From an uncultured Clostridia bacterium (GTDB taxonomy: Bacteria > Bacillota > Clostridia > TANB77 > CAG-465): 64,000 nt of DNA. The notes beneath the pieces were generated by a model. That model saw only the letters and a program-made list of their open reading frames with translations, was not told where the DNA came from and did not search any database. The stretch is from contig CANRQA010000002.1 of assembly GCA_947632635.1 (NCBI GenBank), positions 5-64,004 on the forward strand. Reading direction: 5' to 3'. Position numbers and translations under genes: made by a program. Of this stretch, positions 60,158 to 60,967 are shown piece after piece; position 1 is the stretch's first letter; the number at the start of each line of letters is the position of its first letter.

Positions 60158-60167
60158 TAAAATAAAA

Positions 60168-60195
60168 ACAGACGCCCAAAATTTGGGCGTCTGTT
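60168..60195. terminator. Bidirectional terminator shared by ruvC and the minus-strand GC-rich unit
   Basis: Perfect palindrome ACAGACGCCCAAAT/ATTTGGGCGTCTGT. An A-run on the left gives TTTTATTTT on the minus strand. Confidence 0.85.
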
Positions 60196-60343
60196 AAATT
60201 TTCAATCGCACATACTACGCGAAGTTTTTGCATTTAGCAAAATGTAGTATGGGCAGCGCCTTTGAACGAATGTCCGTCCTACTGCACAACTCGCTTATTC
60301 ACTTGCCTAAAATGAAGGCGGTAAAAATAAAGACTTATAGACG

Positions 60344-60370
60344 CTAAAGAAAAACTGTCGACCGTAACAT
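60344..60370 (-). other. Mini-ORF 4 (MLRSTVFL*) behind SD AAGGAAGGAGA
   Basis: ATG at 60370; SD 10 nt upstream; lies within DR1. Confidence 0.3.
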
Positions 60371-60402
60371 AAAATCAAAATCTCCTTCCTTCTGTATTTT
60401 TT
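60344..60402. repeat. Direct repeat DR1 (pairs with 60691-60745)
   Basis: CTAAAGAAAAACTGT(C/T)GACCGTAACATAAAAT[CAAAAT]CTCCTTCCTTCTGTATTTTTT. Confidence 0.9.
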
Positions 60403-60422
60403 AACTGACGCCTTAAGGATAG

Positions 60423-60580
60423 GCGGTTTGTAATTCGATTTTTCCCCCGCTCGAAAACTGAGCGGTTTACAATTTGCTTTTCCCCCGCTCGAAAACTGAG
60501 CGGTTTACAATTTGCTTTTCCCCCGCCCGAAAATTGAGCGGTTTACAATTCGCTTTTCACTCGCCCTGAGAAAAGGCGAG
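60423..60580. repeat. About 3.5 tandem 38-bp units, each forming a CCGCTC-N7-GAGCGG hairpin
   Basis: Units at 60423-60461, 60462-60499, 60500-60537, and a degenerate 60538-60580: GCGGTTTACAATTTGCTTTTCCCCCGCTCGAAAACTGA. Confidence 0.9.
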
Positions 60581-60690
60581 TTTTATGCTTATTATCGCGC
60601 ATATTTGTCCGAATAAGGAAACCGGACTAATGCGCAAGCTTTCTTCTTCGAAAAAAAGCGGAGATCAAAAAAAATTAAAGTTCAAGTAAT

Positions 60691-60717
60691 CTAAAGAAAA
60701 ACTGTTGACCGTAACAT
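60691..60717 (-). other. Mini-ORF 3 (MLRSTVFL*) behind SD AAGGAAGGAGA
   Basis: ATG at 60717; SD 4 nt upstream; lies within DR2. Confidence 0.3.
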
Positions 60718-60745
60718 AAAATCTCCTTCCTTCTGTATTTTTTTT
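60691..60745. repeat. Direct repeat DR2
   Basis: See DR1; it lacks the 6-nt CAAAAT insert. Confidence 0.9.
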
Positions 60746-60776
60746 CACTAACATTTTCTATAAGTTGTTTGTACCA

Positions 60777-60800
60777 CTAGATAAATCCACTGCTATACAT
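60777..60800 (-). other. Mini-ORF 2 (MYSSGFI*) behind SD GAAGGAGG
   Basis: ATG at 60800; SD 9 nt upstream. Confidence 0.3.
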
Positions 60801-60863
60801 AAATAACAGCCTCCTTCATCTTTATGACATGCTCTTAGGAATGTGCTCGTTGATCATAAAAAA

Positions 60864-60887
60864 TTAATTCATATAGTTATGAACCAT
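60864..60887 (-). other. Mini-ORF 1 (MVHNYMN*) behind SD AAGGGAGG
   Basis: ATG at 60887; SD 8 nt upstream. The start codon sits in the hairpin GTTATG-GTT-CATAAC. Confidence 0.3.
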
Positions 60888-60938
60888 AACTTATGCCTCC
60901 CTTAAAAATTTTTTGGGATAATTTTTTAACCTAAATAT

Positions 60939-60967
60939 AGTATACCACATTTTATATATTATGTCAA
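60939..60967 (-). promoter_or_regulatory. sigma-A promoter (extended -10) driving the GC-rich unit
   Basis: Minus strand TTGACA-17-TGgTATACT. Confidence 0.65.

Follow-up and report, generated by a model that had tools for sequence, protein, structure and literature searches.

A GC-rich, strain-specific cassette between ruvC and a patatin-like gene in an uncultured Clostridia bacterium: a possible minus-strand RNA gene with mini-open reading frames and a hairpin array

The ruvC-patatin gap and its minus-strand signals

We describe a cassette lacking a protein gene in a 64,000-nucleotide stretch of DNA from an uncultured Clostridia bacterium (GenBank assembly GCA_947632635.1, contig CANRQA010000002.1, positions 5 to 64,004 of the forward strand), referred to here as the window. 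The cassette lies between ruvC (59627-60157, plus strand; Pfam RuvC) and a gene for a patatin-like protein (61094-61957, plus strand). It most likely represents an RNA gene specific to the strain or, alternatively, what is left of a mobile RNA module. An earlier interpretation made from the letters of the DNA (the sequence-only reading) had taken ruvC to be convergent with the patatin-like gene. The two genes are co-directional, and it is the orphan unit between them that converges with ruvC and diverges from the patatin-like gene. All features listed in that reading were found where it had placed them and in excess of chance.

The gap between the two genes measures 936 bp with a G+C content of 0.332 and contains no open reading frame (ORF) longer than 45 codons, in line with its previous description as gene-less. 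It has the highest G+C content of the 31 intergenic regions of the window, the others typically having 0.15-0.25, and it is also among the longest. This agrees with the compositional anomaly reported before: against 26.6% G+C for the window as a whole, values inside the element reach 0.39-0.455, compared with 0.2-0.3 in the flanking DNA, and the maximum over 300 nt (0.43, in the element) is more than 4 standard deviations above the mean (0.266; standard deviation, 0.037). GC-rich intergenic regions are the way in which structured RNAs are found in AT-rich genomes. Downstream of the array described below, no ORF exceeds 8 codons (minus strand) or 34 codons (plus strand), and no coding remnant was detected in six frames by Pfam, PADLOC, or protein-cluster searches. 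The features of the locus are as follows (SD, Shine-Dalgarno sequence; U0 to U5, hairpin units).

60172..61003, no strand: strain-specific cassette of 832 bp, from inside the ruvC-proximal terminator to just 5' of the patatin promoter
60939..60967, minus strand: sigma-70-type promoter TTGACA-17-TGgTATACT with an extended -10 (score, 11/12 plus TG)
60160..60932, minus strand: predicted transcript of ~770 nt, inferred from promoter and terminator
60864..60903, minus strand: SD AAGGGAGG and mini-ORF1, MVHNYMN, ATG at 60887, stop codon TAA
60777..60817, minus strand: SD GAAGGAGG and mini-ORF2, MYSSGFI, ATG at 60800, stop codon TAG
60670..60745, minus strand: direct-repeat copy A, carrying mini-ORF3
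60717-60691, minus strand, within copy A: mini-ORF3, MLRSTVFL, behind SD AAGGAAGGAGA, codon 3 CGG
60598..60636, minus strand: nested hairpin GCGCAT..GTCCG..CGGAC..ATGCGC (from the sequence and from minimum-free-energy and centroid folds)
60392..60584, minus strand: hairpin array, units U0 to U4 (from repeat search and alignment)
60545-60584, minus strand: U0, an ACTCGCC..GGCGAGT hairpin
between U0 and U4, minus strand: U1 to U3, near-identical 38-nt units with CCGCTC-N7-GAGCGG
60392-60429, minus strand: U4, a degenerate unit with a CGCCU..AGGCG palindrome and no U-tract on the minus strand
60323..60402, minus strand: direct-repeat copy B, carrying mini-ORF4, between U4 and U5
60370-60344, minus strand, within copy B: SD and mini-ORF4, MLRSTVFL, codons 3 and 4 CGG TCG
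60284..60325, minus strand: U5, a degenerate sixth unit with stem GCCU/AGGC and linker-like GAAUAAGCGAGUUGU
60212..60252, minus strand: 3' hairpin CATACTAC..GTAGTATG with an inner TTTTGC/GCAAAA stem (from the sequence and folds)
60150..60195, minus strand: intrinsic terminator, a perfect 14-bp stem (60167-60195) and then a T-run

The proposed transcription unit carries a signal at either end. On the two strands of the window (128 kb), only 17 sites score 11/12 or better against the sigma-70 consensus; the cassette promoter is among them, and nearly all of the remaining ones lie immediately 5' of ORFs. The predicted transcription start is near 60932. At the other end, 10 nt past the ruvC stop codon, the two terminator arms (60167-60180 and 60182-60195, 14 nt each) are 100% complementary, and TTTATTTTAT follows the hairpin on the minus strand only, the U-tract being poor on the plus strand. 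The sequence-only reading was thus right in recognizing a near-consensus extended -10 promoter and a one-sided terminator with perfect arms. Together with the start signals discussed next, these support its view that the region looks like a full transcription unit of the minus strand that holds no protein gene. Compared with shuffles, the predicted transcript folds at -216 kcal/mol (z score, -5.6) on the minus strand and at -180.8 kcal/mol (z score, -4.1) on the plus strand.

The ATGs of the four mini-ORFs lie 5-11 nt after AGGAG or GGAGG. Four such SD-ATG pairs in the element, or three independent ones if the two MLRSTVFL copies are counted as one event because they are duplicates, compare with a mean of 0.09 in dinucleotide shuffles, and three or more occurred in 0 of 2000 of these. 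This bears out the claim that four SD-led mini-ORFs on one strand are unlikely to arise by chance. Across both strands of the window, 32 combinations of an SD and an ATG at 4-11 nt were found, 23 of which head ORFs of at least 30 codons; among the nine that head short ORFs, four are in the element and five are spread over the other ~127 kb of both strands. The excess over shuffles indicates that the mini-ORF starts are genuine translation-initiation regions, at least historically. By itself, mini-ORF length is uninformative, since stop codons are frequent in an AT-rich genome and, by our estimate, 7 to 8 codons is roughly what any frame would give at such AT-richness.

Mini-ORF3 and mini-ORF4 belong to a direct repeat of ~80 bp whose conserved core is essentially the SD plus the mini-ORF. 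This is the repeat given previously as 55-59 bp, here followed over 60323-60402 and 60670-60745; its two core copies agree except for an indel of 6 nt, located between SD and ATG, and a single synonymous change (TCA/TCG). CGG is the joint-rarest sense codon of the window genes (7 of 16,391 codons, 0.43 per 1000), and TCG, which follows it in mini-ORF4, is used at 1.04 per 1000 codons, so that mini-ORF3 has one rare codon (CGG), mini-ORF4 has two consecutive ones (CGG-TCG), and mini-ORF1 and mini-ORF2 have none.

Conceivably, the cassette is a selfish or defense module of a new type that consists of RNA only. A strongly transcribed RNA would carry four highly initiated minigenes, and the hairpin array would be the built-in regulator or antidote, either as a platform for binding or as a substrate for processing. 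By analogy with CreT, a tRNA-sequestering RNA toxin whose growth arrest is relieved by the cognate tRNA, or with lambda bar, the CGG (then TCG) after the start in two of the ORFs could tie up ribosomes, peptidyl-tRNA, or tRNA-Arg(CCG). Defining traits of CreT are a strong translation start and a mini-ORF in which two rare codons follow each other early on (PMC8501985), and minigenes and rare-codon sequestration are treated in PMC2490762. The cassette resembles CreT and the lambda bar minigenes in its strong SD, AUG, very short ORF, early rare codon, and stable downstream stem-loops. However, two consecutive rare codons occur in mini-ORF4 only, there are four ORFs of 7 to 8 codons rather than one of 4 to 6, and there is no CRISPR-Cas locus alongside, nor a degenerate CRISPR repeat-spacer of the creA kind, to act as repressor, the neighboring genes being ruvC, GDE, CofD, patatin, and CAP/SH3. 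Membership of the CreTA family was rejected on the grounds of the single mini-ORF with consecutive rare codons and the lack of a CRISPR-Cas partner, and we regard a module of this more general kind as very improbable.

The SD-led ORFs of 7 to 8 codons, followed by alternative hairpins, are also reminiscent of ribosome-sensing leader-peptide attenuators (erm, cat, ABC-F, or msr type), and an attenuator whose regulated gene has been deleted had been among the suggestions of the sequence-only reading. Resistance operons include 8-amino-acid leader peptides, and as in such attenuators the hairpins can sequester SDs: the mini-ORF3 SD is able to base-pair with an AUCUCC that lies 3' of it. The suggestion is not supported. 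The cassette has no downstream gene and ends at its own terminator, with ~150 nt from mini-ORF4 to this terminator; no remnant of a resistance gene was found in any frame; no homologous leader, with or without a gene, was found in relatives or at sister loci; and four leaders plus a six-unit hairpin array far exceed any known attenuator. We consider this explanation, too, very unlikely.

Two further observations concern the mini-ORFs. A microcin C-like role for the heptapeptide MVHNYMN, with its terminal Asn, was rejected, as no MccB (ThiF-type) Pfam match was found among the neighboring genes and a C-terminal Asn is frequent by chance in an AT-rich genome. Furthermore, a 13-nt motif, AAAAACTGTTGAC (60963-60975), overlaps the -35 of the cassette promoter and recurs inverted in mini-ORF3 (60697-60709, 13/13) and mini-ORF4 (60350-60362, 12/13). 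It could be an operator or the trace of an inverted duplication; the inverted match is not significant (E, 0.21).

The hairpin array

The center of the cassette is occupied by a tandem array with a period of 38 and 3.6 copies (60423-60558), which confirms the ~3.5 tandem 38-bp units with CCGCTC-N7-GAGCGG stems, and the other GC-rich hairpins, that had been seen before. The array is in fact longer than this. U0, U1 to U3, U4, and U5 align in a single register, giving six units in which the 6-bp stem is paired in 33 of 36 cells, and three stem pairs have changed on both sides (CG to UA and UA to CG; in U0, U4, and U5). The pairing is matched by only 7 of 500 column shuffles and falls to 28-61% when the partner is shifted by 1 to 3 columns. 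The loops of the units differ (AGUUUUC, AAUUUUC, AUCCUUA, and similar), and the 38-nt units abut without spacers. As far as can be judged from the alignment, this pattern favors selection of the array hairpin at the single-strand level. At two positions of the stem, a G.U pair in the minus-strand RNA would be an A.C mismatch in its plus-strand counterpart, which slightly favors the minus strand as the acting strand of the array. Folded on its own, the array surpasses shuffles on either strand, with -79 kcal/mol (z score, -3.8) on the minus strand versus -71 kcal/mol (z score, -3.0) on the plus strand.

The compensatory stem changes also disfavor a role of the units as sequence-specific binding sites on duplex DNA. 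Plasmid iterons and the sopC centromere of F consist of tandem units that each carry a short palindrome, and the tandem palindromic 38-bp units with their 6-bp inverted repeats and "3.5 copies" layout recall them. The junction also acts as a foreign-DNA hot spot (see below). The array might in principle be such a set of iterons or a sopC-like centromere derived from a plasmid or phage. In those elements, conserved repeat sequences are accompanied by a rep or par gene. Here, the arms covary (UA to CG and CG to UA in U0, U4, and U5), a behavior incompatible with recognition by a DNA-binding protein that reads the sequence. Genes of the rep, par, or integrase kind are lacking in the neighborhood, and blastn against 72,556 plasmids and 50,697 phages gave no match. 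The unusually high G+C content is moreover atypical for origins. A DNA-level element is accordingly among the least probable of the explanations that we weighed.

Just as improbable, in our view, is an RNA acting from the plus strand. Because the U-tract of the ruvC terminator is poor on that strand, read-through from ruvC is plausible, and the gap might encode either a plus-strand RNA with C/U-rich anti-SD motifs (UCUCCUUCCUUCU twice, UUUUCCCCC three times), as had been proposed, or a series of weak terminators, all acting in one direction, to stop this read-through. On the plus strand, every unit hairpin indeed has a T-rich tail (TTTACAATTT) behind it, U0 and one of the units resemble terminators, and the plus strand, too, folds better than shuffles. 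However, no plus-strand promoter scoring 9/12 or better was found 5' of the array, the two stem positions mentioned above become A.C mismatches, the fold is weaker than that of the minus strand, and both the SD-ATG excess and the strong minus-strand promoter and terminator would be left unexplained.

Boundaries, relatives, and known systems

Comparison with sister strains delimits the cassette sharply. On the ruvC side, two contigs (L092, with 97% DNA identity, and L090, with 86%) are homologous to the window only as far as 60171, whereas on the patatin side two others (L091 and L093, with 95.8%) are homologous only from 61004 onward. These limits enclose the terminator to the promoter (plus ~36 nt), which implies that the exchanged piece corresponds to one complete transcription unit. 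In its place, the sister strains carry unrelated cargo: a bidirectional terminator of their own, an ORF of 111 amino acids on the minus strand that matches ribbon-helix-helix proteins below threshold, an ORF with a signal peptide, and a sortase. An assembly artifact can be dismissed, as the same strain was recovered in independent assemblies from four samples with identical sequence; carriers of the strain include ENA ERZ27249050, ERZ27249546, and ERZ27249555 and run ERR10663731. One contig from a different sample (L085, positions 1-300 against window 60365-60700) has 2.6 rather than 3.6 copies of the unit and is otherwise identical; this difference reflects either copy-number polymorphism or assembly collapse.

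At a larger distance, the order CofD - GDE - RuvC - [gap] - patatin - CAP/SH3 is conserved among 34 species-level relatives (RuvC, 60-88% identical), with only the CofD-GDE-RuvC part visible in those where the contig ends or the patatin gene is not adjacent. Their post-ruvC gap ranges from ~100 bp to 1.46 kb and contains differing, unrelated ORFs without a Pfam match; in none of the 14 gaps measured was the G+C content elevated, and no gap has content similar to the element. Across this Clostridia lineage, the junction between ruvC and the patatin gene is a hot spot of gene flux.

Several details of the junction may be recorded here. Many metagenome contigs end right after ruvC. The ruvC-proximal terminators of the window strain (60167-60195) and of L092 (~625-665) have only the stem base AACAG...CTGTT in common, their interiors being different, and the homology breakpoint falls in the 5' arm of this terminator. 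This suggests that the cassette may have been exchanged by recombination within or beside the terminator hairpin. At the other side, the 5' end of the patatin-like gene (61073-61110) shows an apparent frameshift: a TTG at 61073 reads MKIGLALSG.., and the conserved GGAKGAAHIG resumes in another frame from GTG 61094, with a single extra base within ..AGTGGACGGTGG... The arrangement is identical in the sister strains L091 and L093 and hence is not a sequencing error; the gene is either an old pseudogene or truly starts at GTG 61094.

The strain specificity of the cassette brings up the possibility that it is non-functional filler, i.e., a foreign, higher-GC, repetitive scrap acquired by illegitimate recombination, with relic or fortuitous signals, slipped-strand repeats, and young palindromes. 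The sequence-only reading had likewise held that homologues showing no conservation would point to a decaying remnant of foreign DNA; no homologue is known, and the occurrence of the element in one strain lineage does raise that alternative. It fits the different content at this site in sister strains whose flanks are 96-97% identical and in the 34 relatives, the unstable copy number, the perfect stems and near-identical central units, and the failure to find a homologue in the searched collections. On the other hand, a top-tier promoter, three independent SD-ATG pairs, and an oriented terminator, jointly on one strand and spanning the cassette exactly, are hard to obtain by chance, and the degenerate edge units stay paired through double substitutions. 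We judge filler unlikely, though by a narrow margin the most probable of the rival explanations.

Searches for known relatives were uniformly negative. Rfam 15 gave no match at gathering thresholds anywhere in the window, and at an E value of 10 or less it gave only sub-threshold, terminator-driven matches (rimP, Leu/Phe leaders, and others; 11-28 bits versus thresholds of 40-95) that fall mostly on the 60167-60195 hairpin, which agrees with the earlier remark that no RNA family could be recognized. A tRNA/tmRNA search found none. Scans with exact or degenerate patterns for five segments, including the 38-nt unit and the SD-mini-ORF repeat, found nothing in IMG/VR and GTDB genomes, and a scan of JGI metagenomes with the SD-mini-ORF repeat only gave two chance matches, one inside uvrA and one at the start of a signal-peptide gene. 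A six-frame pseudo-protein query, aimed at pseudogenes or at spurious ORFs called on homologous elements, had no match at an E value of 0.1 or less among 5.8 billion protein clusters, and Pfam and PADLOC likewise had none in all six frames, from which it follows that there is no recognizable pseudogene and that no ORFs have been called on a homologous element. Similarly, blastn and a covariance model of the unit detected no copy in the 34 syntenic relatives or in the rest of the window. Integron attC sites, group II introns, retrons, omega-RNA or bridge-RNA, and CRISPR arrays were rejected as identities, the defining neighbor genes, core motifs, or spacer being lacking.

Among described systems, the type III toxin-antitoxin arrays (ToxI, CptI, and TenpI) come to mind as they, too, consist of a few head-to-tail units of ~38 nt behind an upstream promoter, followed by a palindrome and an SD plus ATG, in an accessory or mobile context. 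The repeats of toxIN loci average 38.1 nt (range, 31-62) and are present in 1.9-5.6 copies (PMC3401426), and the 38-nt unit of the cassette, in 3.6 copies (2.6 in the other sample), lies inside this range (31-62 nt, at least 1.9 copies). Thus, the element might be a decayed or orphan module of this type, with the array as ToxI/CptI-like antitoxin RNA, the U4 palindrome as the old Rho-independent terminator that in such loci separates repeats and toxin gene, and mini-ORF4 as what is left of the 5' end of an endoribonuclease toxin gene since lost. In that case, the array may persist as anti-addiction decoy or as relic. The order of repeats, short palindrome, and SD plus ATG agrees with the published locus layout, truncated toxins of 45-66 amino acids are known (PMC3401426 for both), and the accessory hot-spot location fits as well. 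Yet there is no ToxN/CptN/TenpN-type endoribonuclease gene, and no toxin ORF or remnant was found in any frame (Pfam, PADLOC, and the search of 5.8 billion proteins). The promoter is not at the start of the array but ~370 nt 5' of it, with two other mini-ORFs and an SD-ORF copy intervening. The palindrome past the array is an in-register degenerate repeat that lacks a U-tract on the minus strand, while TTTTAT comes after the U0 hairpin when the plus strand is read. The units are simple hairpins of high G+C content with covarying stems and extra SD-mini-ORFs on their flanks, and hairpin-preserving divergence of edge units is not a described property of ToxI. No ToxI family appeared in the Rfam scan at an E value of 10 or less, the presence of a ToxI model in the library not having been checked. 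Taken together, we find a type III relic unlikely.

Other parallels are looser. Like the CsrB/RsmZ sponges, the cassette would be independently transcribed (a prediction here) and displays a row of repeated hairpins with single-stranded purine-rich linkers; those RNAs have many GGA motifs, mainly in their hairpin loops, whereas here the loops are U-rich and lack GGA, and the predicted RNA is about twice as long. A CsrA sponge was rejected, since GGA is not enriched (13 observed versus 11 expected from shuffles) and the loops are U-rich. The pneumococcal BOX elements (A-Bn-C) share the intergenic location and the variable number of tandem hairpin units of ~40 nt between flanking modules, but the flanking modules of the cassette are direct rather than inverted repeats, and it has its own promoter, terminator, and translation starts. 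As for the multi-copy character of BOX or of miniature inverted-repeat transposable elements, one copy was seen in the 64-kb window and none at the loci of the 34 relatives.

Strong promoters also occur elsewhere in the window. At 52204-54229, five tandem paralogous genes encode membrane proteins of ~75-86 amino acids that each start with MY(E/K)KYFDKKIFIRK, four of them behind promoters with the perfect sequence TTGACA-17-TGnTATAAT, whereas that of the fifth (52204, TTGACG) scores 11/12; a gene with a BRO-N domain lies near them at 49304-50206. On the minus strand at 35331-35599, a perfect 12/12 promoter at 35599 precedes an 83-amino-acid ORF, part of which (MTKSGFVNE..) repeats the N terminus of a 261-amino-acid protein encoded at 36825-37610 and which is probably a gene fragment or the remnant of a paralogue.

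A tentative accessory RNA gene

We propose, with a probability of roughly 0.4, that the cassette is a self-contained accessory gene for a minus-strand RNA of ~770 nt, which would engage ribosomes at its mini-ORFs and display the hairpin array. A gene on this strand is favored by the strong promoter, the oriented terminator, the matching limits of the cassette, the non-random start sites, and the hairpins kept by compensation. Its transcription, the translation of its mini-ORFs, and any partner or function are what we infer from these features. Transcription would start at the near-consensus extended -10 promoter and stop at the strong intrinsic terminator beside ruvC. On the RNA, ribosomes would load at the four strong SD-AUG sites and leave after 7 to 8 codons. 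Possibly, this loading acts on the RNA itself, shielding it from a 5' exonuclease or Rho and opening nearby structure, rather than serving to make useful peptides. The GC-rich center is predicted to fold into at least seven hairpins in a row, including the six in-register units, parted by A/G-rich linkers; such a row may serve a protein or RNA partner as a multivalent platform for binding. The cassette itself would have been gained by replacement at the recombination hot spot between ruvC and the patatin-like gene.

This proposal develops the structured or sponge RNA envisaged by the sequence-only reading, which is compatible with the compensatory changes across six units. Several considerations weigh against the proposal. 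No homologue was found in the 34 syntenic relatives, four sister contigs, plasmids, phages, or scanned collections, an absence that is weakly established as the large DNA collections were scanned by exact patterns of 20-29 nt, which diverged homologues may escape; lacking a homologue, there is no evidence of purifying selection between species. The covariation comes from a small sample, six paralogous copies at one locus. Folding is significantly better than in shuffles for the plus strand as well as for the minus strand. Finally, most stems are perfect Watson-Crick palindromes and the central units hardly differ from one another, which suits young repetitive DNA no less than a selected RNA.

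In conclusion, the cassette falls outside any known family and is best described as a variant of the independently transcribed, repeat-bearing RNAs of bacteria, with mini-ORFs for ribosome loading placed around a hairpin-repeat array, an architecture unlike that of any described family. If the element is a mere relic, it still documents a sharply bounded ruvC-patatin hot spot of gene flux at which complete transcription units are swapped. If the minigene module applies, it would represent a minigene-type bacterial RNA toxin that is independent of CRISPR-Cas and travels as hot-spot cargo. If, as we tentatively prefer, it specifies a functional RNA, it would be a rare case of an RNA-only accessory cassette swapped at a hot spot of the chromosome, here in uncultured gut Clostridia with small genomes. 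To our knowledge, CsrB-like sponges and RNA toxins are poorly known in Firmicutes, and the cassette could hint at new RNA-based mechanisms of addiction, defense, or sponging in these bacteria.

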